Of a stretch of 64,000 bases of DNA, positions 31,125-62,311 are shown piece by piece. The stretch is taken from NCBI GenBank assembly GCA_965224705.1, contig OZ245056.1, positions 1,152,001-1,216,000 of the forward strand, written 5' to 3'. The notes under the pieces are model-generated. The model did no database searches. It was not told where the DNA came from and was given only the letters and a program-made list of their open reading frames with translations. Made by a program: the position numbers and the translations under genes. Numbering within the stretch: the first letter of the stretch is position 1; the number at the start of each line of letters is the position of its first letter. The stretch is from Spirochaetaceae bacterium (GTDB taxonomy: Bacteria; Spirochaetota; Spirochaetia; DSM-2461).

Positions 31125-31130
31125 GATTTT

Positions 31131-31159
31131 ACATTACGGGAGTTTTGGCATTTATGCAA
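31131..31159 (-). promoter_or_regulatory. Sigma70 promoter giving a probably leaderless Rpn mRNA (identical copy at 32711-32739)
   Basis: TTGCAT-17 nt-TAATGT-6 nt-ATG; no SD. Confidence 0.55.
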
Positions 31160-31199
31160 GGGATGTCTTAGCGTGAAGGGTGAAGTGTGAAGCCCCCCT

Positions 31200-31745: not shown

Positions 31746-31837
31746 TTGTAATATTGTTGTTAGGCGTGGCTGCCTTGTCCGCAGCAAAATCTGCCTTATT
31801 GGGGCACATTCTTATGGCGGTGTGGGGGGGGGTGCCT

Positions 31838-32116
31838 TCAGAGCTTTTCGATCTCTTCTTCGCTCAGGCCGGTGGCCTTGATGATGAGTTCCATGTCGGC
31901 TCCGGCGGCTTTTAATCGCCTGGCTGTTTGCATTATGCCTTCTTCTATACCCTCTTCCCTGCCATCGTTCCAGGATTCATCCAAACCGCTTAGATAATCC
32001 CTTCTCCATTTCTCCTTGGCTTCCAGCCTGTCCAACATGGCTTGATCGGCGGTGAATTGGGTGTAGAGTTTATGGGCCTCCTGAATATACGGGTTGTCTC
32101 CCAATAAGACTCGCAT
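31838..32116 (-). CDS. Putative RpnS-like small protein, 92 aa
   Basis: AAGGAGG-ACGAG-ATG conserved in frame. Confidence 0.6.
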   Translation of the reverse strand: MRVLLGDNPYIQEAHKLYTQFTADQAMLDRLEAKEKWRRDYLSGLDESWNDGREEGIEEGIMQTARRLKAAGADMELIIKATGLSEEEIEKL

Positions 32117-43058: not shown

Positions 43059-43116
43059 CTAGGAGTCTGTCGGACTTACGCTTCACACCTCAAAGTCTCA
43101 GCGCCCGACAGATTCC
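43059..43116. mobile_element. Internally deleted MITE family A
   Basis: CTAGGAGTCTGTCGGACTTACG ... CCGACAGATTCC. Confidence 0.6.
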
Positions 43117-43590
43117 CCCACCCTTCTGCGCCGTTCAAACCCTACAATGCCAATCGACAATCCTGCCGCAATCCATAGCAGCCATGGCGTGTCCAGCGGA
43201 AACAGGGAGGCCGCAGCGGCACTCAGCATGTAGCCAAATGGGACAACGGCAACGGCTGCGGATTCAAGCAGGCCCTGCCTGCCTGCCGCCCTTTCTTCGT
43301 TCCCTTTCCAGTAGACAAGATGAACCGTAACAAGATGAATCCAGCCCTGGCAGGCACCGGCGACGACGAGGAACAAAAGGAGCATGGACAGAGAGGGCAG
43401 CCTGCCGCTGTCAAACCGGATTGCTCCTGCGGCAATGCAGACAGCGGCGAATACAAGGGCGGCAGCTTGTGTTGATCTGTTCCCAACCCTAACGGCCAGT
43501 CCGCTCAGACCCAGAACCATACCGGAAAGAATACTTCCTCCCAGAAGAGCGGCAAGGCCATAACCGATAAACTGTGCGCTTAGACCCAGG
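43115..43590 (-). pseudogene. Duplicated 3' end of the MFS transporter gene (direct repeat of 61111-61586)
   Basis: 476-bp near-identical repeat at offset 17996. Confidence 0.92.
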
Positions 43591-44415: not shown

Positions 44416-45780
44416 ATGCTGGAAGTAAAAACAGATAAAGAAAGAATCTCGTTAACCCCCGTCAGACGGGATAAGGAAGAAAACTCATTAACCTTCGACC
44501 TCCAGGATAGCAGTAACAAAATATGGATGACAGTAGAACGCGCTGATAATCAGTTAATAATAAAAGAAAAAGATGAGGATATAATAGAATCCAAGCAGTC
44601 CCTTGAAGTCAAGCTGAACAACCTTTTTCTTTCCATGATTGAAGCTGAACAATCAGGAACTGAATTGACAGAAACCGAGGATGAAAACAACAATCCCTTT
44701 GATCCGGAATCTATAAATGTTAATGCTAAAGCATTCAACCTTACTCTTATTTATGAAATGATAAAAGATGGTGATATTGATTTGTTCCCCGATTTTCAGC
44801 GAAATCTGGTTTGGAACAGCATTCAAAAATCCAGGCTTATTGAATCAATTCTTCTCCGTATCCCCCTTCCCATGTTCTATTTTTCTGAAGATATGGAAGG
44901 ACGCATTACAATTATTGATGGCTTACAGCGATTAACAACTATTAAAGACTTTATGGATAACCAATTCCCACTGACCAAGCTTGAGTACCTTCAAGAGACC
45001 TGTGGAGGGCGTTATTTTTTCGATGATGGTAAGAAAAAAGGAATAGACGCAAAATACCTTAGATGGTTCAAACAGACTCAGTTTTCAGTGAATGTCATTG
45101 CCCCATCCTCTCCTTACAATGTGAAATATGATATTTTCAGGCGTATCAATACGGGAGGCAAACCTTTAAACAACAAGGAAATCAGGAATTGCCTTGCAAG
45201 CTCTGATCTTCGAAATCTTCTTAAAGAAATGGCTCAAAGCGAATCATTTTTATCTGCTACTGACAATGGGATTAAATCTGTCAGAATGGAAGACCAGGAC
45301 GTGGCACTCAGGTTTCTTCTGTTCTATAGACTAAAAGAGAAGAATGGTGATATTCAGCAATACGATGGCAGTATGAATTCCTCCCTGGATGCTTTGACAG
45401 AAGAGATGCGAAGAATAAGTAAAGAGGAGAAAGAAAAATACTTGAACTTGTACACAAGCGCAATGATGAATTCAGAGTATCTTTTTGGGAGCAAGTACGC
45501 ATTCAGAAAAATTAAGAAACATAACTTACAACCTAATGCGAGAAGACTTCTGATAAACAAAGCTCTTTTTGTTTGCTGGTCTATTCTACTCGCAGATTAC
45601 AGTCCAGAAAGGGTGAAACAGTGCAATCAGCCGAAAGCTCTTGTACGGCCTCTTGCTGAGAAAATAGAAGAAGATGAAGAATTGCATTACTACTTATCTT
45701 ATGGCACAAACGGGAGAGCCAACCTTCTCCACACACTGAAATACTGTGAACAGATTATTAAAGACAACCTGGAGGTATAG
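44416..45780 (+). CDS. DUF262 (ParB-like) protein, Menshen NsnA-like
   Basis: PDFQRNLVW, SRLIESILLRIPLP, IIDGLQRLTT, IFRRINTGG. Confidence 0.88.
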   Translation: MLEVKTDKERISLTPVRRDKEENSLTFDLQDSSNKIWMTVERADNQLIIKEKDEDIIESKQSLEVKLNNLFLSMIEAEQSGTELTETEDENNNPFDPESINVNAKAFNLTLIYEMIKDGDIDLFPDFQRNLVWNSIQKSRLIESILLRIPLPMFYFSEDMEGRITIIDGLQRLTTIKDFMDNQFPLTKLEYLQETCGGRYFFDDGKKKGIDAKYLRWFKQTQFSVNVIAPSSPYNVKYDIFRRINTGGKPLNNKEIRNCLASSDLRNLLKEMAQSESFLSATDNGIKSVRMEDQDVALRFLLFYRLKEKNGDIQQYDGSMNSSLDALTEEMRRISKEEKEKYLNLYTSAMMNSEYLFGSKYAFRKIKKHNLQPNARRLLINKALFVCWSILLADYSPERVKQCNQPKALVRPLAEKIEEDEELHYYLSYGTNGRANLLHTLKYCEQIIKDNLEV

Positions 45781-46926
45781 ATGGAACAGTTAAATATCAA
45801 AAATTTTAAATGCTTTAATGATATTGCAATTGACTTGAATAAGCTGACAGTACTTGCGGGAGCCAACAGCCGGGGAAAAAGCACCTCAATTCAGGCTTTT
45901 CTTTTCCTGCGTAGAACAATAGAACATTGCGGTGAGTGGAATAAAGACTCAATGTGTTACTGCCTGTCAAATCAGCATTTTAACAATTTAAATGTAGAGC
46001 TGAATAAAAACTACTGCCTCTCTCTTGGAACAAGTTCTTCAATAATCCCCTTTGATTCTTCCTCTGCGGGAATTGAAATTGGTATTAAAGATAAAAGCGG
46101 AACATTCAGCATTTATTATGATGCAGGAGAACAGGATTCACTCTATCTCACGCCAGAAAAGATTAAAAACATGAGTTCTGATAATACCATGTCAATATTC
46201 AAGCAGCAGTTCTATTATCTTAACGCTGAAAGAATCGGTCCACGTATGCAGCAGGAAATTAGGTTCTATGACTACCCCAACACAGGGTATCAGGGAGAAT
46301 ATACAGCCCAACTCCTAGGAGATACGGAACTTACCTACCGATTTAATGTTGATGAGCAGCGGATGTCACCTGATTCCAGATCAGCAAAACTGGAGCAGCA
46401 AGTCAATGCCTGGATGGACTATATTTTCCCCGGTACATCTATTTATGCGGAATATAATCCAAAAACTCTTACAGCTCAAATTATGATAGGCGAGAACTCG
46501 GAAAGGACTCAGGCCCCCAATATGGGATTTGGTATCAGCTATGTGCTTCCCATCATTGCCAGCGGCTTGATTGCTCAAAAAGATGCATACATGGTTATAG
46601 AAAACCCGGAAGCCCATCTTCACCCATCAGCTCAGTCCAGAATAGGAAGCTTCCTTGCGATAGTTGCCAATTCCGGAGTCAAAGTCATAATTGAAACGCA
46701 TAGTGATCATGTCCTGAATGGTTTCCAGCTTGCAGTGTTGAAGAAACAGATTGCCTCAAAAGATATAACCATAAACTATTTTTCCGATAGAGAGTCTGAT
46801 CGTCAGCCCCATGTAGAACCTATTGCAATCAGTGAAACGGGGGAGCTGTCCAGTTGGCCGAAAGGGTTTTTCGATCAAAGCCAGCGAGATATGGCCGAAT
46901 TATTCAGGCTGCGGAAAAATGTGTAA
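45781..46926 (+). CDS. AAA/ABC-type ATPase with DUF3696-like C-terminus, Menshen NsnB-like
   Basis: NFKCF, GANSRGKS, YLNAER, GFGISY.LP, IENPEAHLHPSAQ, IETHSDH, WPKGFFDQ. Confidence 0.88.
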   Translation: MEQLNIKNFKCFNDIAIDLNKLTVLAGANSRGKSTSIQAFLFLRRTIEHCGEWNKDSMCYCLSNQHFNNLNVELNKNYCLSLGTSSSIIPFDSSSAGIEIGIKDKSGTFSIYYDAGEQDSLYLTPEKIKNMSSDNTMSIFKQQFYYLNAERIGPRMQQEIRFYDYPNTGYQGEYTAQLLGDTELTYRFNVDEQRMSPDSRSAKLEQQVNAWMDYIFPGTSIYAEYNPKTLTAQIMIGENSERTQAPNMGFGISYVLPIIASGLIAQKDAYMVIENPEAHLHPSAQSRIGSFLAIVANSGVKVIIETHSDHVLNGFQLAVLKKQIASKDITINYFSDRESDRQPHVEPIAISETGELSSWPKGFFDQSQRDMAELFRLRKNV

Positions 46927-47698
46927 GTTCTTTCTACTTAACGAAGCAGTTGATCTCCCCGAATTTGATGATTTTTTATGTGGAATGATGGAACTGAATG
47001 CCATTGAAAGAGATGGATATGGATTCTACAAACATGATTCAATCTATAGCATTGATAACTATTCAAGGCTATTTGAGAATTATTCTCAAGATACACAGCT
47101 TGTCAGTCTGTTTATTGAGCAACTAATTCATTGTGATACTTATCTGAAGGATGAACAAACAGCAGATGAATTTTGGAAAACTGATAATGCGTTTCTTGGT
47201 ATTGATTTTTCAAAAACAAGTATTTCTGAGCACAAGCAAGTAACAGATAATGATAGTTTTCATGACTTTATTTCTACTCTTCTCTTTAACTGTGATTTCA
47301 GGGGTTTCTGGAAGAGGAAAAAAGAATTACTCCCGGATCTGATTTTCTGTGATTCCGTCAAGCAAAGTATCCAGAAGGCCGGAAATTCTTCTCATTTCAA
47401 TCAGATTTTAACGAAACTCAAAATCTTAAATGATATTGCCCGAAACTGGCAGAAAGGGAAATTCAGTTATCATAGAGCCAATCAGAACCACGGCATAAAT
47501 ATTTCACCAGAAACTCCTAATACCATGGCTAAATATGGAACTCAAAGAACCTTCCAATTGCCGGAAGGCGGTAGTCAGGAATTTAACTTGCATGTCAAGA
47601 CTGGTGGTTTAAGATTTCATTTTTACCCGAATGAACAGAACAGAAAAATCTATATTGGGTACATTGGACCTCATTTGAGGACAGTGAAGTATAAATAG
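46919..47698 (+). CDS. Putative effector, Menshen NsnC-like (RelE-like C-terminus)
   Basis: Overlaps the ATPase stop; C-terminal HVK...RFHF......IYIGYIGPHL. Confidence 0.7.
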   Translation: MCKFFLLNEAVDLPEFDDFLCGMMELNAIERDGYGFYKHDSIYSIDNYSRLFENYSQDTQLVSLFIEQLIHCDTYLKDEQTADEFWKTDNAFLGIDFSKTSISEHKQVTDNDSFHDFISTLLFNCDFRGFWKRKKELLPDLIFCDSVKQSIQKAGNSSHFNQILTKLKILNDIARNWQKGKFSYHRANQNHGINISPETPNTMAKYGTQRTFQLPEGGSQEFNLHVKTGGLRFHFYPNEQNRKIYIGYIGPHLRTVKYK

Positions 47699-47712: not shown

Positions 47713-48009
47713 ATGCCCAAACCCCGCTTAGAACTCACCTGGATAGGCAAGGAAAACCGCCCCAGCCTGGAACCAAGAATCCTGATAGAAGATTCAGAAA
47801 AATCCAGAGGCAGCCGAAAATCCCCAAACATGCTGATCCACGGCGACAACCTTCTGGCCCTCAAAGCCCTGGAATATTGCAGGCAAGCCACAGAATACAA
47901 CGCCCGGCACAATGAAAAGCCCTGGCGCTACGCCATCATTCCCGGAAACAAGGTCTCCCCTCAAATGAGTTTTGAGGGACTGGTTAAGCAGTTTGGGGAG
48001 GAGGAATGA
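47713..48009 (+). pseudogene. In-frame fusion scar of type III R-M Mod N-terminus and probable Res C-terminus
   Basis: KPRLELTWIGK..LEPRILIED..NMLIHGDNLLALKALE joined to YC..ATEYN....KPWRYAIIP. Confidence 0.75.
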
Positions 48010-49172
48010 TGGAATACATACCTTGCGAAGAATTAGCAAAAGAGTTCGAGGAGCATCTGAGTAAAGAGGACAACCAAAATATTTTATTCTCTGGTAAATT
48101 CGGTTCCGGTAAAACAATTTTTTTAAAAAGATACTTTGATGACCATAATGATAAATATGAAACAATCCATCTCTATCCTGTCAACTACAGCATTTCATCC
48201 AATGAAGATATTTTCAAATTGGTTACAGCAGATATTGCCGGAGAACTGCTCTCCAGGGAGTTTATTAGTACCAATAAAAAATTTCAAGAATCTTTAAAAA
48301 GTGTAATTAAATCAGAAAAATTCTGGGATTTCCTTGAAGCCCTGCCCAAAGTGGGCAAAGTTATAGAGATCGGAAATACAGTCAAAGACATACTGGCAGA
48401 TATTAAGAAGCCGGAAAGCGACATTGACAAAGTCAAAACCTATCTGGATACTATTTCCAGTAATGATCCAGTAAAAGAAATAATTACTCAAGCCCTCAGT
48501 AGTATTTGTAACAAAAAAAAGATTTTAGTTATTGACGATCTGGACAGAATAGATCCAGAGCATCTTTTCAGAATTCTCAATGTTTTAACCGCATACTGCG
48601 ATAGTAATATCGGACTAGGCTTTGACAAAATAATCCTTGTTTGTGATATTGAGAATGTCAGAACGATTTTTCATCATCGTTATGGTCCGGAAGCTGATTT
48701 TTATGGGTACATATCCAAGTTTTACAGCAAGGGATTTTTTAGATTTTCTCTTGTTGATCGGATTATAGGCCCTATTAGACAGGTCATTGTGAACTGTCTC
48801 TCCAATGTGTTAGGTCCCGGCTACAACATTAACTCCCTTTTAGACTTCCCTGACTTTATATTCCAGCCGGGGATTGTATCCATGCTTGACATACATTTAT
48901 TCACCCAAAATGACTTGTCATATATCTTGCATACAAGACTTGAACCATTTTATAACGATAATGTAGCAGTTGACAAATTTATTGTCATAAATGCAGCTTA
49001 TATCTATGCTTTATTTCAATACGACAAAGGTAAGGCATTCTTAGCTATCGAGGAATACGGTCAATCCTCAAAATCAAGATTACCACGCGAGTCATCAGTA
49101 ATCTTTGACCGGTTACTGATTGGCCATGCTCTTGGCCGCTTGGTACAGGATCGACGCGCTGTGCCAAAGTAG
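48006..49172 (+). pseudogene. KAP-family P-loop NTPase copy 1, C-terminally truncated by an IS
   Basis: SGKFGSGKT, LVIDDLDRI; similarity to copy 2 ends at 49154 where the IS begins. Confidence 0.82.
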
Positions 49173-50770
49173 TTGTCACACAAGTTAAGTCAACTTAGGA
49201 GGTGACAACATGCAACGCTACAGTGTTCAATTCAGGAATACTATCTTGCAAAAGATGATCGGCCCGGAGAAACGGAAGGCCGCTGATCTCTCAGAGGAAT
49301 TCGGGGTTTCTGCAGCCACAATCTATGGGTGGAAATCAAAGCTAAAAGACGGTACCCTTTTAGTTATGGGAAATGAATCAACGAGTCATGAGAGAATACC
49401 GTCGGAGAAGCTAATGCTTCTACTCGAGTCAAAGGGAATTAGTGGAGCAGAAATGGGTGAATGGCTTCGCCGAAATGGTCTGCACTCTGAACATCTTGAG
49501 CTATGGGAACAAGAGCTCCGGGCCCTTGTTGATCAGAAAGGTGGGGATAAGTCCCGGGAGATGAGGGAGATTCGCAAGGAGCTGAAAAAGAGGGATAAAG
49601 AGCTTAGCCGTAAGGACAAGGCTCTTGCGGAGATGTCAACAATCATAGCACTTCAAAAAAAACATCTCTTCTGTTTCAGGAGGCCGAGGACGAGTGACTC
49701 ATCGTAGTGTGAAGAAACAGATTGTTTCTGATATCAAGGAGGCTGTGGCTTTAGGGGCTCCAATCTACAAATGCTGTGATGCTCTGGGAATTCAAACAAG
49801 GACGTACTACCGGTGGACTCAATGCACCGATGATAAGCGCGCAGGGAAGGCAAGGGGAAATCCCAGAGCCCTAAGCGAACAGGAAAAGGATGCGATCATT
49901 GCTGTGTGCTGCTCGGAAAGGTTTGTGGATACCAATCCTTATGAAATTGTTGCTGCTCTTGCTGAAGAAGCCACTTCCCTTGCAAGTCCCAGAATATTCT
50001 ATCGAGTGTTGAAGGAACGGGGGACTCCTCTCTCACAGGCGGAACTCAAAGCCGCCTGGAAAGTCCTACAGACCACCGAAACTTAAAGCGACCGGCCCGG
50101 ATCAAGTGTGTTTCTGGATATTACATGGATGCCCTCTCAGGTGAATGGTCTATTCTGGTATGCCTATATTGTCATTGACGTTTGGAGCCGTGAGATTATT
50201 GGCTGGACCATCCATGATTCTGAGTCGGAAAAATATGCCAGAGAGTTATTCCTTAGAATTAAAGCGAAACGGGACCTCAAGGGAACCTGGCTCCATGCGG
50301 ATAATGGGAATCCCATGTGGGGAGCGGCCTTTGCCGTTACTCTGGCAAACATGGGTATGTTCCTTTCGCATTCCTGTCCTTTGGTGAAAAATGACAATCC
50401 ATTCATAGAGTCATTCTTCAAGACTCTGAAATACCATGCTGGTTATCCGCAGGGCTTTGCCGCTATTGATGAGGCCAGGAGTTGGACGACATATTTCATC
50501 AACTGGTAGAACACAATTCATAGGCATTCGGGAATAGGCTATGTAACACCGCTACAGCGGCGAACAGGTGCATCATCCAATCTATTCTATTCGCCAAAAA
50601 GGAACCGGACACTTCAGGAGGCATGGAAGAAGCACCCTGAACGTTTCCCGAAAAGGAGTCCTCGAATGTGGAGAGAGCGTATGGTTGTCTACCTGAATCC
50701 TGCACGGGGAACCAGAAAGTTTTTATATAAAAAAGCAGGATGATTGTGACAACTTACTTGACACTAAGCG
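49155..50770 (+). mobile_element. Degenerate IS3-family element (orfA 49210-49707, frameshifted orfB ~49694-50740)
   Basis: 26-bp imperfect TIRs (19/26) ending AGTTGTCACA; HTH orfA with A8 slippery run; DIT, HADNG, DNPFIESFFKTLK DDE motifs broken by frameshifts and stops. Confidence 0.85.
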
Positions 50771-50912
50771 ACATGAAGTCCAAAGGAAATCATACAGATG
50801 CTATTTTTTTAAAACCATTTTTAGAAACTCCAAGTTTTATTGTTTCAGGGATATTATATGCTTCTTTAGGAAAATGATAGACCAGAAAATCGTAAAAACG
50901 GTTTTTGTGGTA

Positions 50913-52274
50913 TTAACGCATGATTTTTCTAACAATGCTGACAGTTAGATAGCTCATCATAGTAAAACCTGTCAATCCTTCTAAACCAGCAAAAAAAGCC
51001 ATCCAACCATTTGTCGGAGATATATCACCGTATCCAATAGTTAAAAATGTTATAGCACTAAAATACAAAGCCTGAAAAAATTTAGGCCAACATTTTGACG
51101 GCAAGGTAAGTGTTAGAGTATCCGATACGAAAAAAAATATTATCGCAAAAATAAAAATAAATCCAAATAGAGCAATAATAATTCGACCGGGTTTTGTTCC
51201 ATATTTTCCAGCTAAATTAAAAACCATATTCCAAATAAAAGTTAAATATTTCTTCTTGTGTTTTCCTTCCAAAGCCTTTTGCCATTTATACTCTGCAAAG
51301 CAATCATCCTCTTCGGCGTATAGTCCTTGATTATGGAAATTTAGTCTAAGCATTGCCAGTTGTCTTGAAAGTGAATCAGTGGCATCCCCCTTGCCTTGGT
51401 TCAAGACATTATTTTTGCACTTGTTCCAATCTAAAATAATATACCCTTTGTTTATTGTTTCACTAAAAGATAAAATGCCTTCATCAGATATAGCTGCTTC
51501 TCTTATATCCAATGAACTGTCTATTGTACAGATGTCAAAACGAAGTTTTTTAAAACAAGAACCATTAGTATTGATGGCTGTATTTTTGAAAAAAACACAT
51601 CCAATAAAAACAAGTATATTCTCACCACATATTTCCTTAATACTTAGGTCTATTTTTTCAAAAGACATCTCCTTAAAATAAAACGAAGTATTTTTTACTT
51701 TTCTAAAGAGGAATTTTTCAAATCCAAAGTTCATAAACTCAAAACGAACCTCTTTATTTATCCAATTTGTATCAAAAAAACTAACAATTGAAACATTTAA
51801 TTTATTTTTTGAAAAAAGAAATCCAGATATTTTACTAATTTCTTTTTCTTGTGCAGAATTATTATCAGTAGAGAAAATAGATTTGTTAAATAATATTTTT
51901 TTACAACTAAATTTATTATTAGAAATAACAATATTCCTATGAAAAGTACAATCCATCAACTTAAATTCTGATACCATAATATTGCAATTACTTAAACTAA
52001 AATCATGGTTGATATCTGTCTCTGAAATAGCAAATATTGCTTCTTTATCTCCATCTGGATGAAAATTACATTGCTCTATGAAGATTGACTCAAAGATAAT
52101 ATTTTTAAATACTATTTTACCAAGAAAATCAACATACCGAAAAGAAAAAAATACACTAAAATTTTCTGGTTTATCCTTAAGCATCTTCATTATACCATCT
52201 TGAGATATTTTCCGATGTTTATTAGAAGACCCCTCGAGCTTTAACTTCCACACATTGCTAACCATTGTATACAT
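50913..52274 (-). CDS. Two-TM potassium-channel domain protein with long N-terminal Phe-rich (pentapeptide-like) repeat region
   Basis: ALYFSAITFLTIGYGDISP pore and filter flanked by TM helices; YGTKPGR motif. Confidence 0.85.
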   Translation of the reverse strand: MYTMVSNVWKLKLEGSSNKHRKISQDGIMKMLKDKPENFSVFFSFRYVDFLGKIVFKNIIFESIFIEQCNFHPDGDKEAIFAISETDINHDFSLSNCNIMVSEFKLMDCTFHRNIVISNNKFSCKKILFNKSIFSTDNNSAQEKEISKISGFLFSKNKLNVSIVSFFDTNWINKEVRFEFMNFGFEKFLFRKVKNTSFYFKEMSFEKIDLSIKEICGENILVFIGCVFFKNTAINTNGSCFKKLRFDICTIDSSLDIREAAISDEGILSFSETINKGYIILDWNKCKNNVLNQGKGDATDSLSRQLAMLRLNFHNQGLYAEEDDCFAEYKWQKALEGKHKKKYLTFIWNMVFNLAGKYGTKPGRIIIALFGFIFIFAIIFFFVSDTLTLTLPSKCWPKFFQALYFSAITFLTIGYGDISPTNGWMAFFAGLEGLTGFTMMSYLTVSIVRKIMR

Positions 52275-52725
52275 TTTTTATCTCTTCAAATTTATTTTTA
52301 TAGTATTCAAAAACACTGTCATTTAATAAAAAATCTGACATATATATCAAATCCTTGCCTCCATTATTTTTAACTTTGTCTTTTGCTTTTTTTGACGGAA
52401 AGTAGCGAGTTATACCATATATAGGAATACTTATCTTTTTATTTTTAAGTAATTCAATAATTTCAAGTCCCAGCTCATCTTCACGCTGATCCCCAAGTGA
52501 TATATCAATTATGATTATACTGATGCTATTTCCAACAAAATCCTCGTTCATCATAAATTCTTTTATCGCCTCAAGCCCATATTTAAAAATATTTCCATAT
52601 CTAGAATTATCGTCAAAATGAGTAAAAGAGTCAGGGAATAATTTAAAAGGCCCAACATAATTGGAAAATCTTTCTCTTAAATACTCATAATCACATGGAT
52701 CATCATCGAGCAAATATATATTCAT
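52258..52725 (-). CDS. Stand-alone response-regulator receiver domain
   Basis: IYLLDDD, IIIIDISL, GLEII, YGIT; ATGA overlap with the upstream gene. Confidence 0.8.
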   Translation of the reverse strand: MNIYLLDDDPCDYEYLRERFSNYVGPFKLFPDSFTHFDDNSRYGNIFKYGLEAIKEFMMNEDFVGNSISIIIIDISLGDQREDELGLEIIELLKNKKISIPIYGITRYFPSKKAKDKVKNNGGKDLIYMSDFLLNDSVFEYYKNKFEEIKNVYNG

Positions 52726-55700
52726 TTGCACTCCTCCTCAACGATAGGTATACCTATCTCAAAATAATTTCTAGAAATATTCATTCTTATCTCCTTTTTA
52801 TATAGCTGCCAAAACAAATGTCTAATCGTAAATAAAGATATACTTGCAAATGGAATTATATTCGATTCAACAATATTCTCTATTCGTGCCTTATCCTCAT
52901 TTGTAATCTCTGGGGTACTATTTCCAATATAAAGATAATTTTCTTCAAATCTGACTCTAGAAACAAGTTTCTCTCTATCAAAATATTTTGCCATATTTAG
53001 CATCAGTTGAGTAATAACCAATTTAATATTAATTAGATTCAAATAGTGTACATCTTTATCCTTATCATCATATTCGATTTCTAGATTGTCTATGCATATA
53101 TTCTTATAATATCGAAATATGTAAACAAAAATTTTTGGTATCAAATCATCAATTACAGGGGCAAGTAAAGTTTTCCCTGGTGAACCATCAAAATCATCTT
53201 TATTTTTTAACAAAGAATAATAAACTTGACCAATATAAAAATCAGATTCAACCAACAATGTTGGTATATAAATATCAGGGTTTTCACTATATAGTCGGAT
53301 AATACTATTTTTTAAATTATCAAAATTATATTTTGCACCGTGAGCCGTTTTATAGTAACCCTTTGAGAATTCTTCAATCCTTTTCTTTTTATCTAACCAA
53401 TCCCTTAGTAAGTCACCTGAAAAGTATTTATTTATGTATTCAATAATTTTGTTGCGAAAAACATTGATGAACCGAATTCGGTTTAAAATATCAAGGATAT
53501 TTAACTCATTGTTATCATAAAAGCAAAATACAGCTTTTCCTTTCAGCCTCATACAATTACTATCACCATCTTTTTCCCTCTTAACTTCCTCCGCCAGCCG
53601 ATAAAATATCATGCGATTAAATCCCATATCTTCAGCATTTTTTATATCACTATTAGTATTAGTTAGTGGGATTTCAATGCCATCTTGACCAACCCAATTG
53701 TTTTCTTTTTTATGAATAATAAAACTAGTCCAGTGGTATATATTCTCTTTTATTCCATTTTTTTCTGTTAAAAGTATTTTTCCGTTCAATAATTTATATC
53801 CAAACAATTTCGTCAAATCCCAACCTTTCTCAGTATCCATGTCTTTTCCAAAGTTACCAAATAGTTGAAATTTATTTTCTTCAACTTTCGTATCAAGCAG
53901 GAAAAAACCACCACCCTTTTTAGTACTAATCCCAAGAACATTTGCAATTTCTTCTGTTAAATCCCTAGCAATAGAATCTATAGGATCAGTCCTTCTATCC
54001 TGCATTACACCCGTTGAAGCTTTTTGAAGCCACTTAGAAAACCAATTTGAATGAGATTTGTTTGAAGCAAAGTATTCTTCTAATTTTTTTTTATTTGGGA
54101 AATTGTTCTCCCAACAGGAGAAATCAGAATTAATCACTTTTGTCCCTACTGTCAAGTGATTGAATAATTCTTCAACTTTGCCCATTAATTCTCTATTTTC
54201 TCCACTTAACTTCATAAAATCATCATAATAACTAACTGCCTTATTTTTACTCTCTTGCTCAAGACTAAATTTATCCCTAATTATTGATGTATTCTCAAGA
54301 TAAAGGGCTTCCAGGAAGACTTTTCTTGTCATATTTTGCACATCTTTCTTCTTAAAAATTCCGAGTATATTCTCTTCAAGTTTACAGACACGGCCTTCAT
54401 TGTTTCGAACTGAACGACTAATATGAGCGGCAGAAAAGATCCCAAAATTACTCAATGCGAATTGAAATTTCCCTATCTTTACCCTTACTTCTTCATTTTC
54501 ATATTCTTTTTCATGTTTCAGATCCCCACGGTTCTTTTGTTCCCTTAGTTTACTTAGTTCCTCTTGTTCCTCCAGTTTCTCCAGTTTCTCCAGTTTCTCC
54601 AGTTTCTCCAGTTTCTCCAGTTTCTCCAGTTTCTCCAGTTCCTTCAGTACCTCATAGATAATATTCTCCATTTTACATATAACAGTTAAAGTCTCAATTG
54701 AGATTAAATATGTTGTTTGAACTAAGGAGCCATATTTAATTAGATACCTCAAGTAATTTACTTCATCTACTATGGTGTTTATAGTTTTTTCAGAATTGAC
54801 TGCATTGTCAAATCTCTGATTAAATTTAATTAATTCATCCAACACCCAGTAAAATACGGCAATTTGTATTCCTCTATGTCTTATCAATGAATGGTGGTTA
54901 AAAGCCTTGATTGTATTAAACTTTAGATTATGTACAGTTGTATTTCCTAACTTTAGACAATTCGTTATATAGTTGTAAAGTAAATCAATAAATTCTTCAT
55001 ATGTTATCTTCAAACTATAAGTTGAGGGGGGATTAAACAGCTCCTCTGTACCTACAGAAAGACAAAATTCATTACTATTTCTAGAATTTAGTTTTTTAAG
55101 AATTTCCTCTTCCTCAGTAGTTAGCTTTTCCGTGGATCTTTGCTTTGAAAAGATTTTGTATATGCTGTGTATTATCATCACTTGTGATAATTGACTGCTA
55201 TACGATTTATCACCCATTTCTGAGTGATTAACCATAAGATCATCTTTATTTATTTTTCTTAAATTGATATATTCATGATCAAAAAAATATTTTCTAATAG
55301 CATCTAAAGATGCCATAGAGGTCAACCTCTGAGTATCATCCTCCTCAAAACATATAGGACAATATTCTTCGGGATGCTGTATAACCGGGGCATAAATAGA
55401 AGTAAAAAAATATATATTTTCTTCTCTGATTCTATTGCTTATCGTATAATAGTCTTCTGGGCTCATTCTATTTAATAAAGTAAAACATCCCTTAAAAACA
55501 ATTTTTTCGTCTATTTGAAGAATTGCGCTAAACAGATTGTTGAATGTCTTCCCGGTTGCAAGTAAAACATCTATGTAGTATACATCTGCATCTTCAATAA
55601 CTTCTTGGTTAATTTTTCTTAGATCTGAATAATGATCACCAATCGGATCGAACTTGACAACATCGGCTTTGTCATCAAAGACTAACCGATTAATTAAATG

Positions 55701-58700
55701 GATAAATACCCCATTTTCATCTTTGTCAGGAGCTATTAGTAACTTTCTTTTATCATCATCACTACCAGAGTCATTTATTTTATTGGAAATATTCTCACAC
55801 CAAGTCTCTAGCGAATCCTTATTGTCTTTTATAATATCAGAGTAATAAAAGTAGTAAAGAAAATGCTTGTATTGTCCGCTATAGTGTTTTATTCGAAGCA
55901 TTGATTTATTTATTACTGCCCGGTTATTTAATGGGTTACCTTCTTCAACGTCTCCAAAATAGACCTTAAAACTACAATCATTACTTTCGTAAGGTAACCA
56001 TTCCGGTGTTCCAAAAATAATTTCTGGAATTACGGAAGCTCTATTTGTAGAAAAGAGTGGCACTTCTAAAAGAGGATCATTTTTGGGGAAACATCTCTCA
56101 CAGCCAAGTAAATCATGCCATGTTGACTTCAAATATATTAAATACTTATTATTTCTATCGATGGAGAATTTCGAGTCATTCACTAATAAATTATTTTGCA
56201 TTTTATTCTGTAGGACAGTAATCTTCTTTTGGGTATCAATACTCCAATATTTATTTTTCCATTCTAACGTGTTTTGTTTCTTGTCTCCAATAACAACCAA
56301 CGAGTAATAGGGAGAAATTACTTTCACTTTATCCCAGATTTGTTCAAAGTCATCCTCTGAGTACAATTTTTGATAGAATTGATTTTCTATTTCAAGACAG
56401 GTTGTAAGTGTTGAAGAAATCGGGACAATTATGATTATGCATTCCTCTCTTAACGGATTTTCTTTTGATTTTTGTATTCGCTCTCTCAAGGCATTAAAAT
56501 AATTAGAAAAATGCATCTTGGTATTATTCTTGATAATCGCATAATCTAAATCAATTAGTGGTACTTGTTCTTCTTTATTTGATAAGTATTCAAGAAAACA
56601 CTTTACACGGGTAACAAGAAGTTCGGAATAATTACCATAGCCAATTAATGTGTAATTTTTGCATTGAGGCTTATATTCAGAATTACAAAATATTTCCCTA
56701 GCCAGCCAATAAGAAAACAAGGTAGCATATTTATTCTGCTGAAACATTTTCAGTGCTACTACAAAATCAGTTATATGAATTTTTGCCCCTAACTTTACAT
56801 GTGTGTTAGTCCATTTACACCCATTCTCTTCTATATTTTTAGCTAGTTTCTCACCTAAAAACTTAGATATGTAGGATTCATAAAGCAAATAGTTATGCAT
56901 AAAAGTATAGCTTCTATTTTCTTTTGCAATGAAATTTTCTGCAATAAAAATAGAATTACTGATATATTTTTTTCCCTCTTCTGTTAGGTCTGTCATATCT
57001 TTTATTGATTGATCCTGTTCAAAAGAGATCAAACATTCTGAAGAGAAAGAGATTATTGTTGATTCAAATCTGTCTCTCGTCGAGATTAGCAAGTTCAAGT
57101 TATCTAATATCTTTTCACTCTTTTTATTTAAGATAATTGACTTTAATTCATCAATACATGTGTGATACTCCACATTTGATAAGTTGTAAAAAACTAGATT
57201 TCCACTGGCATTTTCCATACTCACATACCTGAGCATCAAGACATAAAGATAACGAAATGTATTATGTGGATTCTTTGTGTTTTTATCATCTACGATTTTT
57301 ATACAATCAATGATTGCTTTATGGTCATGGTAAATGGCTCCTTGTTCCCAATTCCTCTCTTTTAATAGATCACTTTCTTTTGATCGTTTATACTCATGTT
57401 TTAATAGTTTGTAATAATAGTCCTTATCTGCATATTTATGACTCATCATTTTTTGAGGGAAGTATTTTTTTCTTTCCTTTATATTTTTCAGTATTTTTCT
57501 ATTAAATGGAAAAACCACTTCATAAAGGGTACCGAATGGAGGATGTAAATTATCTTCTAATGTATTAGTATACAGTGAATCTTTTTGGGGTATAGTTAAT
57601 CTCACTGTCTTAGTCGGATTGTTATATCTGTTTGTATAAATATCAAGAATTCCATTGATTTTATTCAACGTAGAGGTGCACTCAGGAATACCATAACTTG
57701 CTGTTTCCGAATGTCGTTGCCTCGGCAAAAAAGCTTCATCGGGGGGGACAAAAAAAAGATCATATAAAAGTTTTTCCTCCTGAGACAAGTCATCTTCAAT
57801 CTCATTTTCTATAATCTTATCTCTTAATATCTTGGCATTTTTCTTTTTTACGTCAGGTGACAAAAAATGAAAACTTTCTTTATTGTCAAGATATTGCAAT
57901 GTTTTTTCAATGAGACCAATTTTCCCGGCATCAACCAGTGAAATATCCAAAAAACGAACATCTTCTTCTAAAACAGTATCTTCGTTAAGAAGGAAAGGCC
58001 ATCTATCGTGAACATCATTAAATTTATCGACAGAGTCTAACTTGTAGATATTAGTTATCAAAATACCAGTCTTTTCAGTGGAGTGTTCTATGCAGTTTAA
58101 AGCTAGCTCCTCAATACCTAATGATATTTTCTGTGTATAATCGTGTAGGCGAAAAAAATAATCGGTATAGTCTGTCAGTAAAGACGGATTTTTTTCTAAA
58201 TATTTATTGGCTATTACCGCTGGCCATGAAACATGTCCAGTAGTTTTTTTATTCCCCATAAAAATAGAAGTGAATGCATGATGAAGAACTCTGCCCGCCG
58301 AAATGGCATAAAAGATAAAAATCTGGTATAATTTACAATCTAATAACTCGTTAACAGCATATTGCCCAAATTCTTCATAGTAACATTTCTCATTGCCTTT
58401 TCCAGGATATATATAGGGGACTAAAAGATGAAGCTCTTTCAACAATTTAAAAAAGAACTCTAAATAATATAGCTCCATGAAAATATTTTTTTCCTCGGGG
58501 TTATATTTGGAGATTGAGTAAGTCCTGATTTCTTTTAGTATCTCATCAGCATTAAGTATGGACCTATTTTTGAATCGTCCAACCAAATCGTGATTTTCAA
58601 TAAAATCCTTTATAGCAGTGTCAAATAAGAGTTTTTTGCTTTCCTTATTTAGTTGTATAAATGGAATACTATGATGACTTACTGCATACTTGTTATAATT

Positions 58701-59204
58701 TCGAGCCTGTTCGCCATCCCTTGGATCTGAACTCCAACTATAATCTACCTGTATTTCATTCTTGCTTTTTTCAGTGTAATGGTATTGCTTAATGGCAAAA
58801 GGTGATGTACTGTACAATGAAGCTGAATCAACCAACTGCCTCAATTTGTGAGAAGCTACGCCAGTCTTCCCACAATAAATAGTTAATGGTTTTTTAATAC
58901 TGTTACAAAATAAAAACAAAATAGAGGGAAGTGAAGCTGGGTAGCTTTCAAAGTTCTCATCGATAAAAATCTGTAATTTGCTCACACGTATTGCTTTCTG
59001 TATAAAAATGTTTAATATCTTAAATAGTAAATAGCATTCACTTTTTTTTATATTTTTTGAAGTAATTTTAATTAGAAAATCAGTTGAATCCAAAAGAGAA
59101 GCCTGACTATCAGTGTAAAGGGAAATAGTAGATGAGTCATTATCGTATTTAATCTTGTGACAATATCTTGATAGAAGTGTTTTATCATATTGGCTATTGT
59201 GCAT
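52722..59204 (-). CDS. 2160-aa multidomain protein: GHKL/HATPase-like, two PRTase-like and a C-terminal histidine-kinase-like region
   Basis: AAGGAG SD; EELALNCIEHS..LVDAGKIGL..YGI; IIIVPISSTLTT; YYIDVLLATGKT; TAHGAKY..LMLNMAKY. Confidence 0.7.
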   Translation of the reverse strand: MHNSQYDKTLLSRYCHKIKYDNDSSTISLYTDSQASLLDSTDFLIKITSKNIKKSECYLLFKILNIFIQKAIRVSKLQIFIDENFESYPASLPSILFLFCNSIKKPLTIYCGKTGVASHKLRQLVDSASLYSTSPFAIKQYHYTEKSKNEIQVDYSWSSDPRDGEQARNYNKYAVSHHSIPFIQLNKESKKLLFDTAIKDFIENHDLVGRFKNRSILNADEILKEIRTYSISKYNPEEKNIFMELYYLEFFFKLLKELHLLVPYIYPGKGNEKCYYEEFGQYAVNELLDCKLYQIFIFYAISAGRVLHHAFTSIFMGNKKTTGHVSWPAVIANKYLEKNPSLLTDYTDYFFRLHDYTQKISLGIEELALNCIEHSTEKTGILITNIYKLDSVDKFNDVHDRWPFLLNEDTVLEEDVRFLDISLVDAGKIGLIEKTLQYLDNKESFHFLSPDVKKKNAKILRDKIIENEIEDDLSQEEKLLYDLFFVPPDEAFLPRQRHSETASYGIPECTSTLNKINGILDIYTNRYNNPTKTVRLTIPQKDSLYTNTLEDNLHPPFGTLYEVVFPFNRKILKNIKERKKYFPQKMMSHKYADKDYYYKLLKHEYKRSKESDLLKERNWEQGAIYHDHKAIIDCIKIVDDKNTKNPHNTFRYLYVLMLRYVSMENASGNLVFYNLSNVEYHTCIDELKSIILNKKSEKILDNLNLLISTRDRFESTIISFSSECLISFEQDQSIKDMTDLTEEGKKYISNSIFIAENFIAKENRSYTFMHNYLLYESYISKFLGEKLAKNIEENGCKWTNTHVKLGAKIHITDFVVALKMFQQNKYATLFSYWLAREIFCNSEYKPQCKNYTLIGYGNYSELLVTRVKCFLEYLSNKEEQVPLIDLDYAIIKNNTKMHFSNYFNALRERIQKSKENPLREECIIIIVPISSTLTTCLEIENQFYQKLYSEDDFEQIWDKVKVISPYYSLVVIGDKKQNTLEWKNKYWSIDTQKKITVLQNKMQNNLLVNDSKFSIDRNNKYLIYLKSTWHDLLGCERCFPKNDPLLEVPLFSTNRASVIPEIIFGTPEWLPYESNDCSFKVYFGDVEEGNPLNNRAVINKSMLRIKHYSGQYKHFLYYFYYSDIIKDNKDSLETWCENISNKINDSGSDDDKRKLLIAPDKDENGVFIHLINRLVFDDKADVVKFDPIGDHYSDLRKINQEVIEDADVYYIDVLLATGKTFNNLFSAILQIDEKIVFKGCFTLLNRMSPEDYYTISNRIREENIYFFTSIYAPVIQHPEEYCPICFEEDDTQRLTSMASLDAIRKYFFDHEYINLRKINKDDLMVNHSEMGDKSYSSQLSQVMIIHSIYKIFSKQRSTEKLTTEEEEILKKLNSRNSNEFCLSVGTEELFNPPSTYSLKITYEEFIDLLYNYITNCLKLGNTTVHNLKFNTIKAFNHHSLIRHRGIQIAVFYWVLDELIKFNQRFDNAVNSEKTINTIVDEVNYLRYLIKYGSLVQTTYLISIETLTVICKMENIIYEVLKELEKLEKLEKLEKLEKLEKLEKLEEQEELSKLREQKNRGDLKHEKEYENEEVRVKIGKFQFALSNFGIFSAAHISRSVRNNEGRVCKLEENILGIFKKKDVQNMTRKVFLEALYLENTSIIRDKFSLEQESKNKAVSYYDDFMKLSGENRELMGKVEELFNHLTVGTKVINSDFSCWENNFPNKKKLEEYFASNKSHSNWFSKWLQKASTGVMQDRRTDPIDSIARDLTEEIANVLGISTKKGGGFFLLDTKVEENKFQLFGNFGKDMDTEKGWDLTKLFGYKLLNGKILLTEKNGIKENIYHWTSFIIHKKENNWVGQDGIEIPLTNTNSDIKNAEDMGFNRMIFYRLAEEVKREKDGDSNCMRLKGKAVFCFYDNNELNILDILNRIRFINVFRNKIIEYINKYFSGDLLRDWLDKKKRIEEFSKGYYKTAHGAKYNFDNLKNSIIRLYSENPDIYIPTLLVESDFYIGQVYYSLLKNKDDFDGSPGKTLLAPVIDDLIPKIFVYIFRYYKNICIDNLEIEYDDKDKDVHYLNLINIKLVITQLMLNMAKYFDREKLVSRVRFEENYLYIGNSTPEITNEDKARIENIVESNIIPFASISLFTIRHLFWQLYKKEIRMNISRNYFEIGIPIVEEECK
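54570..54641 (-). repeat. In-frame 9-bp minisatellite, 8 units, encoding (LEK)n
   Basis: (CTCCAGTTT)7 CTCCAGTTC on the + strand. Confidence 0.95.
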
Positions 59205-59336
59205 ATAAACTCCTTCTAAGTATTAATTGGAGATGGATGATTATTTCTTGTATCATACCAAGCGCTTAGTGTCAAGTAGCCGAATTGCCTCATAATTAAT
59301 CTACTCGAACGACCTTTGAAAGTAAGAGGTCGAGTT

Positions 59337-59633
59337 ATGAGGTTGACAATGAAAACCAGACGGGAATTAGCAAGAGATGAGGCTGTACAGTATAGAAAAG
59401 CCTCAAGGAGGGAGAAGAGTGTGGTTCTGACTCATTTTGTACGGATAACCAGCTATAATCGCTCTTATACCGCGACTCTTCTTCGCTGGTATGGCAAGAG
59501 AGTAAGGGATGACAATCCTAACCAGCCGAAACAGTACATAACAACCAAAAAGAGGCGTAAAGGCGGCGAACGCCCTCCAAAGTACCCTCTGGTTATTAAA
59601 GAAACTGTCGAGTGGCTATGCGGGATGATATAA
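59337..59633 (+). pseudogene. N-terminal fragment of an ISNCY-type integrase/transposase
   Basis: MRLTMKTRREL...YRKASRREKS.VL..F...T.YNRSY...LL; no DDE domain follows. Confidence 0.7.
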
Positions 59634-61045
59634 TGGAATACATACCTTGCAAAAAACTAGCAGAAGAGTTCGAGGAGCATCTGAGTAAAGAGGACAACCA
59701 CAATATTTTATTCTCTGGTAAATTCGGTTCCGGTAAAACAACTTTTTTAAAAAGATACTTTGATGACCACAATGATAAATATGAAACCATCCATCTCTAT
59801 CCTGTAAACTATAGCATTTCATCCAGTGAAGATATTTTCAAATTGCTTACAGCAGATATTGCCGGAGAACTGCTCTCCAGGGAGCTTATTAGTATCAATA
59901 AAGAATTTCAAGAATCTTTAAAGAGTGTAATTAAATCAAAAAAAATCTGGGATTTACTTGAAGCCCTGCCCAAAGTGGGCAAAGTTATAGCGATCGGAAA
60001 TACAGTCAAAGATATACTGGCAGATATTAAGAAGCCGGAAAGTGACGTTGACAAAGTCAAAACCTATCTGGATACTATTTCCAGTAATGAAAATAGTAAA
60101 GGAAATAATTGCTCAAGCCCTTAGTAATATTTGTAACAAAAAAAGATTTTAGTTATTGACGATCTGGACAGAATCGATCCAGAGCATTTTTTCAGAATTC
60201 TCAATGTTTTAACCGCATACTGCGATAATAATATCGGACTAGGCTTTGACAAAATAATCCTTGTTTGTGATATTGAGAATGTCAGAACGATTTTTCATCA
60301 TCGTTATGGTCCGGAAGCTGATTTCTATGGGTACATATCCAAGTTTTACAGCAAGGGATTTTTCAGATTTTCTCTTGTTGATCGTATTGAAGAACGTATT
60401 AGAAAGGTCATTTTTACAAGTCTCTCCAACGTGTTAAATGACGACTACATTAATTTCCTTTTAGACTTCTCTGACTTTATATTCCAGCCGGGGATTGTAT
60501 CCATGCTTGACATACATTTATTCACCCAAAATGACTTATCATATGTCATGCATACAAGGCTTAAACCATTTCATAACAATGATGCAACAGTTGACAAATC
60601 CATTGTCATAATTGCGGCTTATATCTATGCGTGGTTTCAATACGACAAAGATAAGGCATTCTTAGCTATCAAGAAATACGGTCAGTCCTCAAAAACAAGA
60701 ATATCAAACCAGTCATCAAGAATCTTCGACCGGTTACTGATTGGCCATGCTCTTGACCGCCTGGTACAGTATCGAGATAGTAACCATATATATGAAAGTA
60801 AATATGAAGAAGATACCAAATATACATGTCAATATAAAGTTCAAATGGCAAATTCTTCTGGTGATTTCTACCTACAGTCAAAGATAACTGAATGGACAAA
60901 ACCCTTCAATACAAATCAGGATCAGGTAAATTGGGATCGTCTTAATGCGGAAGAAATTGAAGACGCTAAAAAGTCAATGATTGCAAAGTTGTTTACAATT
61001 TCAATGCAGAACATAATAAAGCACCTCCCGGAGCATAACCCATGA
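59633..61045 (+). pseudogene. KAP-family P-loop NTPase copy 2, frameshifted near 60090-60145, C-terminus retained
   Basis: Aligns with 48009-49154 and continues ~90 aa further. Confidence 0.82.
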
Positions 61046-61105: not shown

Positions 61106-62311
61106 TCACTCCCCCACCCTCCTGCGCCGTTCAAACCCTACAATGCCAATCGACAATCCTGCCGCAATCCATAGCAGCCATGGCGTGTCCAGCGGAAACA
61201 GGGACGCCGCAGCGGCACTCAGCATGTAGCCAAATGGGACAACGGCAACGGCTGCGGATTCAAGCAGGCCCTGTCTGCCTGCCGCCCTTTCTTCATTCCC
61301 TTTCCAGTAGACAAGATGAACCGTAACAAGATGAATCCAGCCCTGGCAGGCACCGGCGGCGACAAGAAACAAGAGGAGCATAAACAGAGAGGCCAGCCTG
61401 CCGCTGTCAAACCGGATTGCTCCCGCGGCAATGCAGACAGCGGCGAATACAAGGGCGGCAGCTTGTGTTGATCTGTTCCCAACCCTAACGGCCAGTCCGC
61501 TCAGGCCCAGAACCATACCGGAAAGAATGCTTCCTCCCAAAAGAGCGGCAAGGCCATAACCGATAAACTGTGCGCTTAGACCCAGGCGTTCGGTAAAGAA
61601 AAAAGGCAAGTTGAGCAGCACCAGAGTGTTGACCGCCTGCATCCCAAGATACAGAAACACCGGGGCACCCTTGCGCTTAAGCCCAAGAAAATCCTTCGCT
61701 AATACAGAAAAACTCCGGACAGGCGATAGACGGCGGATTTTTTCCCGCCGGGCGCGAAAAGGAAGTTCTTTTAAGAAGACCTCGGATATGCCGCTGGCAA
61801 AAAAGCAGGCACTGTTTATAAGCAGCAGGGGAATCAAACCAAAAGCCGGATAGAGTGCCGCACCAAGCAATTGACCCGCCAGAGAAGATAAATGTCCGGT
61901 GCCGACTCGCAGGCTCAGCAGATCAACCCGTTCGCTCTTCTGATCCAATATGTAGCTAATGACCGCCGGAGAAAAGAAGGCCTGCATCACGGCATTAAGG
62001 AAAACCAGCGGCAGAAACACGATCAATGGATTGCCAACGTCAAAATTCGCAAGAACAGCGGCGGCGGTTAATAAAAAAAGGCCTCGGGCCATGTCCGTCC
62101 CGGCTATAATTACAGGTCGTTGCGTTCTGTCGGCCAGTATGCCGCCAAAAACACCGAACAGCAGAATGGGCAGATGCGCGGCAGCCTGTATTGCGCCGAT
62201 ATTGAATGGATGCGGATGGACAGCAGTAATGAAAACCAGCAATGCCACAACGTACATGCTGTTCCCGAAACAAGTCAGCATGTTTCCGGCAATAATGATC
62301 AATCGGTTCAT
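61106..62311 (-). CDS. MFS transporter
   Basis: About 12 hydrophobic segments; GILADRTQR motif A. Confidence 0.88.
   Translation of the reverse strand: MNRLIIIAGNMLTCFGNSMYVVALLVFITAVHPHPFNIGAIQAAAHLPILLFGVFGGILADRTQRPVIIAGTDMARGLFLLTAAAVLANFDVGNPLIVFLPLVFLNAVMQAFFSPAVISYILDQKSERVDLLSLRVGTGHLSSLAGQLLGAALYPAFGLIPLLLINSACFFASGISEVFLKELPFRARREKIRRLSPVRSFSVLAKDFLGLKRKGAPVFLYLGMQAVNTLVLLNLPFFFTERLGLSAQFIGYGLAALLGGSILSGMVLGLSGLAVRVGNRSTQAAALVFAAVCIAAGAIRFDSGRLASLFMLLLFLVAAGACQGWIHLVTVHLVYWKGNEERAAGRQGLLESAAVAVVPFGYMLSAAAASLFPLDTPWLLWIAAGLSIGIVGFERRRRVGE

Follow-up and report, generated by a model that had tools for sequence, protein, structure and literature searches.

A giant sensor kinase with two phosphoribosyltransferase folds and exchangeable effectors: a spirochaetal operon as probable member of a defensive two-component system family

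The DNA analyzed here is a stretch of 64,000 nucleotides from a Spirochaetaceae bacterium (contig OZ245056.1, positions 1,152,001-1,216,000, forward strand), in the following called the window; all coordinates without a locus name are positions within it. Three genes on its minus strand encode a giant cytoplasmic sensor kinase (P0001; 52722..59204, an intact open reading frame (ORF) of 2160 amino acids (aa)), a stand-alone receiver (ORF 52258-52731, likely coding sequence 52258..52725, 155 aa) and a channel with a GYG filter (50913..52274, an open ORF of 453 aa). The operon probably represents a single allele within an undescribed family of two-component systems for defence, which would combine a new sensor, phosphoribosyltransferase (PRTase) domains that sense nucleotides or phosphoribosyl pyrophosphate (PRPP), and a switching of effectors. 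The core of the system is constant, consisting of an RsbW-like GHKL domain, a probable STAS domain, two successive PRTase folds, a helical bundle, a GAF domain and, as the last part, a DHp-CA histidine kinase, followed by the receiver. The effector slot is variable and is filled in the window by a pentapeptide-GYG channel.

The three minus-strand ORFs are joined by start/stop overlaps. For the receiver the most likely start is the ATG at 52725, which forms an ATGA overlap with the stop codon of the giant gene and has a GGAGG motif ahead of it. With a GC content of 30.5%, compared to 47.1% genome-wide, the single-copy operon lies below every 8.3-kb segment of the genome that was sampled (2-kb steps). 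An initial annotation, made by eye from the DNA, had described three intact, overlapping and AT-rich genes. This description could be confirmed, every motif quoted in it was located in its place, and its domain calls on the operon (a GHKL module, a pair of PRTase folds, a histidine kinase, a receiver and a channel with GYG filter) hold. Short-read contigs from one sample cover positions 50743-54599 and 54611-59349 without any difference, which makes it unlikely that an assembly error lies behind the odd residues described below, although this agreement is not independent, as the sample is probably the source sample itself. In an RNA run from another study, a handful of short contigs fell onto the operon (12% of words), which does not show transcription.

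Domain architecture of the giant protein

The giant protein corresponds to no family in the Pfam, NCBIfam or PADLOC models and contains no transmembrane (TM) segment according to a crude hydropathy scan. AlphaFold2 models were obtained for residues 170-1345 (predicted local distance difference test (pLDDT) 73, alignment of 50 sequences) and 1290-2160 (pLDDT 77, 59 sequences), and all Z scores given below stem from comparisons of these models with known structures (VIA). Conservation was followed in 138 family proteins of at least 1200 aa, with six near-duplicates dropped.

An ATP-binding domain of GHKL type that contains a helical insertion (residues ~178-568, 57501..58673, minus strand as all domains of this protein) is closest to RsbW/SpoIIAB anti-sigma kinases. 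The similarity to RsbW (6m36) is middling (Z 7.3, rmsd 2.4, 102/103 aligned), that to SpoIIAB (1l0o) has a Z score of 7.0, and Atlas features place the segment with HATPase_c "ATP-binding protein" clusters (0.95), so that the initially proposed GHKL-like module was rightly recognized. Its key residues are conserved (N370 in 78/80, H374 in 77/80, D425 in 77/77, G505 in 80/80 and T/S559 in 80/81 members). The segment ahead of it (residues ~40-175, 58680..59087) is of alpha/beta type and possibly STAS-like (hhalign against a STAS profile of 20 sequences: probability 1.3%, E 0.04). Between the GHKL domain and the first PRTase fold there is probably a STAS-like domain (residues ~600-720, 57045..57407), whose hhalign match is weak (score 21.9, E 0.004, probability 8%; the maximum of 25 column shuffles was 9.4). 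The D/N-x-S motif of this domain is present in 31 of 74 full-length members and is missing in the window copy. No N-terminal module is found in 60/138 family proteins. As it is encoded by a separate upstream gene in several loci (L002, L004, L005, L028, L029, L033 and L036, among others), the N-terminal module is a separable unit.

PRTase fold 1 (residues ~771-1040, 56085..56894) has a PRPP loop of the form IVPIxSTxxT, which lacks the acidic pair, and ends with an invariant CxxC. Its residues ~771-1031 match PurR (1o57; Z 11.8, rmsd 3.4, 164 aligned) and an OPRTase (4fym; Z 11.7). PRTase fold 2 (residues ~1077-1287, 55344..55976) contains a second CxxC and a loop that reads FVDDxxxSGxTF in the family and YIDVLLATGKTF in the window copy. 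Residues ~1077-1277 match HPRT (6igs; Z 10.8, rmsd 3.3, 139 aligned), and the profile matches APRTases weakly (E 0.14). OPRTase and HPRT also top the Foldseek list (best E 1.1e-3). Both domains have the type I PRTase core fold by these Z scores, and the two PRTase-like folds read from the sequence are thus borne out by predicted structure. In fold 1, H802 and H810 (137/137) as well as C1035 and C1038 (138/138) are invariant, and no member has an acidic PRPP-loop pair, like a ligand-binding regulatory PRTase. In fold 2, D1212 is found in 138/138 members and is followed by an acidic residue (D/E1213, giving DD or DE) in 112/138, whereas the window copy has DV. Neither fold of the window protein contains the two acidic PRPP-loop residues which mark an active type I PRTase. 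The initial description of both loops as degenerate therefore applies to fold 1 in all members and to fold 2 in this copy, but not to the family at large, in which the loop of fold 2 is mostly canonical.

A helical bundle follows (residues ~1290-1690, 54135..55337; all-helical in the AlphaFold2 model), inside which a 9-bp tandem repeat at about 54570-54640 codes for (LEK)n. The next domain, which had not been called before, is a GAF domain (residues ~1696-1935, 53400..54119; Z 10.5 to 3p01 and Z 9.9 to the GAF domain 3cit; Pfam GAF_2 with E 3.8e-9 in the relative L001). The protein ends with a DHp-CA histidine kinase (52725..53390) that was identified by structure and profile matches. Its model resembles RetS (Z 14.4) and HK853 (Z 13.8, rmsd 3.3, 197 aligned), the family profile matches the kinase structure ThkA by sequence (E 2e-6), and member L001 exhibits canonical GAF, HisKA and HATPase_c domains. 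The C-terminal region that had been noted as resembling a histidine kinase is accordingly one by fold, with H1955 and N2070 in place. In the family the histidine (111/122), the N box (121/130) and the glycine of the G2 box (121/126) are conserved, and the G1 box is divergent in most members. The window kinase keeps the fold, H1955 and N2070, and has Ser2123 instead of the G2-box glycine. With hhalign, no similarity was detected between the two PRTase folds or between the GHKL domain and the kinase.

Receiver and channel

The receiver (E 0.048 against Pfam Response_reg) has the DDD pocket, the phospho-accepting Asp74 and the threonine. In place of the beta-5 lysine it has methionine, encoded by the ATG at 52339-52341 and one base away from AAG, and the initial annotation of a lone receiver with acidic pocket, phospho-Asp and replaced lysine was correct in each of these points. 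The phospho-Asp is invariant in 22/22 aligned receivers, and the lysine was seen by eye in 19 of 21 others. A receiver search returned only the window receiver itself among 35 candidates.

The channel consists of a pentapeptide-type repeat region, a helical linker and a two-TM pore with the filter TIGYG (51027-51041). It matches Pfam Ion_trans_2 with E 5.5e-12, its pore profile matches Kir and KcsA, and the reading as GYG-filter channel could thereby be upheld. The hydrophobic periodicity at lag 5 is 0.22, and the combined score was reached by 23/2000 shuffles. Many of its 99 relatives carry N-terminal pentapeptide repeats (PF13576). With the channel profile, only G000 was found among 41 relatives, and 0/301 genomes in a sample of another phylum, at a strict cut-off and with no positive control.

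Distribution of the family and its exchangeable effectors

With the 567-aa core as query, phmmer recovered 550 clusters at 50% identity when the cut-off was E<=0.001, and 448 when it was 1e-10. In the relatives, Pfam, NCBIfam and PADLOC gave matches to the kinase domain or the PRPP loop only. Pattern scans revealed 8 genome and 26 metagenome loci, of which 10/34 end within the giant gene. The other 24 scan loci (16 groups at 45% sensor identity), together with L073, L077 and L078 from genome searches, make up 27 informative loci. In all 27 a receiver gene directly follows the giant gene; 24 of these receivers could be aligned, that of L020 was recognized by eye, and those of L021 and L032 were assigned from position, size and sensor identity, their sensors being 53-100% identical to those of L020, L027 and L030.

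The outputs of the 27 loci are fusions of the receiver domain (REC) with TIR (five loci), PNP (two), an NDT-like domain (two, weak in Pfam) or a helical segment (three), a small membrane protein (12 loci; TM segment in 8/10 scanned), a four-TM protein (two) and a GYG channel (one, L001 from Omnitrophota, with the same three-gene layout as the window). None of them has a DNA-binding output. Pfam matches of the effectors are PNP_UDP_1 with E 1e-16, TIR_2 with E 2.5e-6 and, weakly, the NDT-like domain with E 0.03-0.09; the REC-PNP form matches the PADLOC model PDC-M60C and a CBASS PNP-effector model over its PNP part. That homologues would keep the receiver and swap their effectors, as initially supposed, is what was found. 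The supposed linkage to the channel recurs in one other genome (L001) without being a fixed part of the system: with 1/27 loci, in a separate sensor clade, the channel is a swappable effector and does not belong to the core.

A sensor tree (FastTree on the PRTase core, midpoint root) places the window sensor among membrane-protein loci (support 100); its core shares 26% identity with that of L001. The channel thus occurs with sensors of two clades which are split by a branch of support 100. As in addition the channels of the window and of L001 have linker and pore in common but differ at the N-terminus, the channel was probably recruited twice.

Several further arrangements were observed. In seven family members (P0009-P0015, 2482 aa) a C-terminal calcineurin-like metallophosphoesterase replaces the kinase, giving a direct fusion of sensor and effector. 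In two loci of different sensor clades (L011:16595-17224, L033:6822-7460) the gene right after that of the receiver encodes a ThyX thymidylate synthase, a position that may point to an involvement of nucleotide pools. L011 also encodes, on the opposite strand (19400-24093), another large GAF-HATPase kinase that lacks annotation, together with a receiver-like partner. Right behind the system, L012:8331-13065 contains methyltransferase, PRTase-CE, ORC-CDC6-like ATPase and CARF genes, and at L027:15488-19607 REC-TIR is followed by a row of Thoeris-type genes for TIR and SLOG proteins, of which L030 shares the first TIR and the SLOG gene. Genes for coupling proteins of type IV secretion systems (T4SS) lie upstream at L002:6355-8346 and L005:4960-6501, which suggests that these two loci are carried on conjugative elements.

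Indications of a role in defence

The family is distributed in a very patchy manner. It was found only in G000 among 41 relatives and among 401 genomes of its phylum, and in 2/401 and 3/401 genomes of two other samples, centre genomes included, with the large searches scoring just two candidates per genome. A single-sequence genome scan gave no match, and none was obtained in plasmids, phage records or viral contigs. The idea of a housekeeping K+ system was rejected in view of this distribution.

PADLOC matches were obtained for 24/123 neighbouring ORFs (15 loci) and for 9/122 control ORFs (Fisher p 0.008), a count that drops five of the system's own effectors, leaves out the neighbours of L016, L025 and L028-L033, takes its controls from ten regions of two genomes and treats neighbours within one locus, which are not independent, as single ORFs. 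The control matches were judged to be partial and of housekeeping type, those at the system loci to be long (Hachiman, restriction-modification (RM), Thoeris-type, PDC); AbiE and T4SS genes are also among the neighbours. The types of effector, the patchy occurrence in AT-rich DNA and the many defence genes nearby together make it probable that this family, which is real, unannotated and modular, is defensive.

Comparison with known systems

In the literature searched in full text, which comprises among others DefensePredictor (PMC13092281), a BREX survey (PMC12839542), Kaur 2020 (PMC7159879) and the Ambrosia/Ophion study (10.1101/2025.09.30.679545), this architecture has no prior description; the PNP operons of unknown function in the Detocs supplement lie outside this scope and may include the REC-PNP form. 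Table S8 of DefensePredictor lists a 343-aa retron-III-like protein as the sole PRTase system (PMC13092281).

The closest likeness is to Detocs, which consists of the TPR-kinase DtcA, the lone receiver DtcB and the receiver-effector DtcC (Rousset et al., 10.1101/2023.01.24.525353). Its defence needs both His and Asp, its effectors are swapped, DtcC is activated by phosphorylation, and the lone receiver was proposed to damp the signal (10.1101/2023.01.24.525353). Both systems combine a histidine kinase with a receiver and a swappable killing effector, both have TM effectors, and the REC-PNP proteins of L002 and L004 are the same fusion as DtcC. The phospho-His (H1955) and phospho-Asp are likewise conserved in the giant family. 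In contrast to DtcA, described there as a TPR-kinase with its histidine at about position 645, the giant sensor has 2000-2400 aa, whole or split into two genes, and contains GHKL, two PRTase and GAF domains. No Pfam TPR match was found in 27 family proteins and no TPR is visible in the modelled residues 170-2160, this being a statement on Pfam and the models and not on a DtcA profile, which was not compared. Moreover, each locus here has one receiver gene instead of DtcB and DtcC, and no PADLOC model covers the giant protein. The system was assigned neither to Detocs nor to Hailong.

HalA of Hailong is described as a depolarizing anti-phage effector with pentapeptide repeats and a pore of K+-channel type (PMC13586616, PMC13434031, PMC13276650), and a review excerpt states that it is toxic without its negative regulator. 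The window channel has this domain make-up (Ion_trans_2, with PF13576 in relatives). Unlike in Hailong, no HalB nucleotidyltransferase adjoins the channel in the window or at L001, where the partner is a kinase-receiver pair. HalA was not among the best 60 of 266 PDB matches to the pore profile, nor did it appear in two further PDB sequence searches. Ambrosia (AbrR, AbrA-D; 10.1101/2025.09.30.679545) resembles the operon as a validated defence system with a HATPase/kinase and a lone receiver, but is built on an N6-methyltransferase, a regulator of XRE type and a nuclease of HNH type, all absent from the operon, and has no PRTase.

PRTases of other defence systems (retron type III/PRTase-CE, ShosT, PsyrT and OpnC of Ophion) share the type I fold, and single members match PRTase-CE with E 0.026, PRTase_III-A with E 4e-4 and ShosT with E 8e-6, in the loop of fold 2 only. 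Those proteins are single-domain effectors, whereas here two PRTase folds lie inside a sensor kinase. PurR and the RsbW/SpoIIAB-STAS modules, the best structural matches of PRTase fold 1 and of the N-terminal GHKL domain, are here fused in one kinase, and the operon contains neither a sigma factor nor a DNA-binding domain.

Possible mechanism and alternative explanations

PRPP and (p)ppGpp are ligands of PurR-type PRTase domains, kinases such as RsbW/SpoIIAB react to ATP/ADP and to STAS partners, and both kinds of module are sensors of metabolism and stress. We know of no identified phage trigger of a defensive two-component system. Judged by its folds, the PRTase pair would bind PRPP or nucleotides, fold 1 serving as a PurR-like ligand site and fold 2 possibly being catalytic, and the GHKL/STAS module would sense either a protein partner or the ATP status. 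A disturbance induced by a phage would turn the kinase on, and His1955 would phosphorylate the receiver, which would in turn activate the enzyme fused to it (PNP, TIR, NDT-like) or a membrane protein encoded next to it. In the window the channel would open and depolarize the cell, and the infection would be aborted. By analogy to Detocs, a chain of sensor kinase, receiver and toxic effector is the most likely mode of action of the family. More tentatively, it may form an undescribed class of immune receptors: tandem PRTases, together with an RsbW-like ATPase, would watch the pool of PRPP and nucleotides or generate a signal from it, and would drive a histidine-kinase relay to effectors such as nucleosidases, TIR enzymes and, twice independently, a GYG channel on which the receiver domain acts directly as gate control.

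Several observations weigh against a defensive relay of this kind. The window copy deviates at 8 of 67 conserved columns (rank 123/137; median about 4). Among these are the G2 glycine replaced by serine and K938E (a lysine conserved to 98%); the copy also has D1213V, lacks the serine motif of the STAS-like domain and carries methionine in place of the receiver lysine. The STAS assignments are weak, the commonest partners (14/27 loci) are small membrane proteins without known family, and the channel is present in just one of the other loci. Counted by region, PADLOC matches occur in 10/15 system loci and 6/10 controls, a weak enrichment, and the channel locus L001 has none among its nine neighbours. 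With receiver lysine, kinase G2 glycine and PRPP-loop aspartate lost, the relay of the window copy may be decaying, attenuated or rewired.

A different arrangement, which appears unlikely, is that of a guard or antitoxin: the channel would be toxic by default and held shut by kinase and receiver, until it is set free by a loss of ATP or PRPP or by a phage that attacks the giant protein; in the window copy the receiver may act without phosphorylation. The toxicity of unregulated HalA and the damping role proposed for the lone receiver of Detocs fit this idea, and so does the fact that all three ORFs are intact although receiver lysine and G2 glycine are lost. REC-PNP and REC-TIR fusions, on the other hand, are more in line with activation by phosphorylation, as described for DtcC, and there is no second receiver that could serve as buffer.

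Less probable still is a decaying relic in the window, with the channel as a passenger or a recent, uncoupled replacement. Several residues are lost, most of them one base away from the family residue, the terminal branch of the window sensor is long (1.15, compared to 0.26-0.81 in five clade mates), and broken KAP and insertion sequence (IS) genes flank the operon on both sides. Yet no stop or frameshift interrupts the 8.3 kb of AT-rich DNA, the ribosome-binding motifs are strong and the start/stop codons overlap, the histidine, N box, aspartate and TIGYG are retained, and L001 repeats the same three-gene layout. Signalling outside of defence, by which purine/PRPP or energy status would be coupled to ion flux or metabolic enzymes, would agree with the PurR-like and RsbW-like modules, the TRAP transporter gene adjoining L001 and the ThyX genes of L011 and L033, but is the least probable explanation in view of the lack of DNA-binding outputs, of outputs such as TIR, PNP and membrane proteins, and of a very patchy distribution next to Hachiman, RM, Thoeris-type, AbiE and T4SS genes.

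If the defensive two-component reading is true, both the sensing role of PRTases, whose folds are known in defence as effectors, and the receiver-gated ion channel would be new. The domains of the giant sensor name a class of candidate ligands (PRPP, nucleotides, ATP) for about 550 clusters that standard libraries leave unannotated, and the effector slot nominates several small membrane protein families as candidate toxins. L001 (canonical kinase and receiver with channel) or L002 (REC-PNP) are better first targets than the window copy.

The island around the operon

The operon lies in a ~17.5-kb island which is bracketed by 477-bp direct repeats of the 3' end of an MFS gene (43114..43590, minus strand, 97% identical to 61110-61586 by blastn; MFS_1) and contains Menshen, two broken KAP-NTPases and IS remnants besides the operon. 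The Menshen genes NsnABC (44416..47698, plus strand) are intact (PADLOC: NsnA E 8e-107, NsnB E 3e-108, NsnC E 3e-50). They are followed by a short ORF (47713-48009) without Pfam match, whose start we take to resemble a fragment of a type III Mod methyltransferase, and by the first KAP-NTPase copy (48000..49154, plus strand; Pfam KAP_NTPase), which is cut by an IS. This fragmented IS3-type element (49155..50760, plus strand; HTH_Tnp_1 and rve pieces) lies downstream of the operon and has a full-length copy of 94% identity elsewhere in the genome. Upstream of the operon there is a remnant of a repeated element, probably an IS end (59285..59620, plus strand; five other genome matches, 88-94%), followed by the second, frameshifted KAP-NTPase copy (59623-60775), a direct repeat of the first (92%, blastn). 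The surroundings had initially been described as a defence island with many broken neighbours, and this picture fits the intact Menshen genes and the damage on both sides of the operon.

To the left of the island, a Schlafen/AlbA_2-HATPase_c_4 gene adjoins an Mrr-NACHT gene (15009-18531), both of defence type. Five tandem paralogues with AAA-ATPase_like and PDDEXK_9 domains (19070-29375; 581-676 aa, 79-95% DNA identity; three scanned) are followed by two PDDEXK_2 genes (30270-32704). Intergenic repeats of ~130-150 bp, possibly REP-like or cassette-type elements and often in tandem, are scattered over positions 8600-38700; of the 42 genome matches of this repeat family that reach at least 80 bp, 27 fall into 1.0-1.2 Mb.

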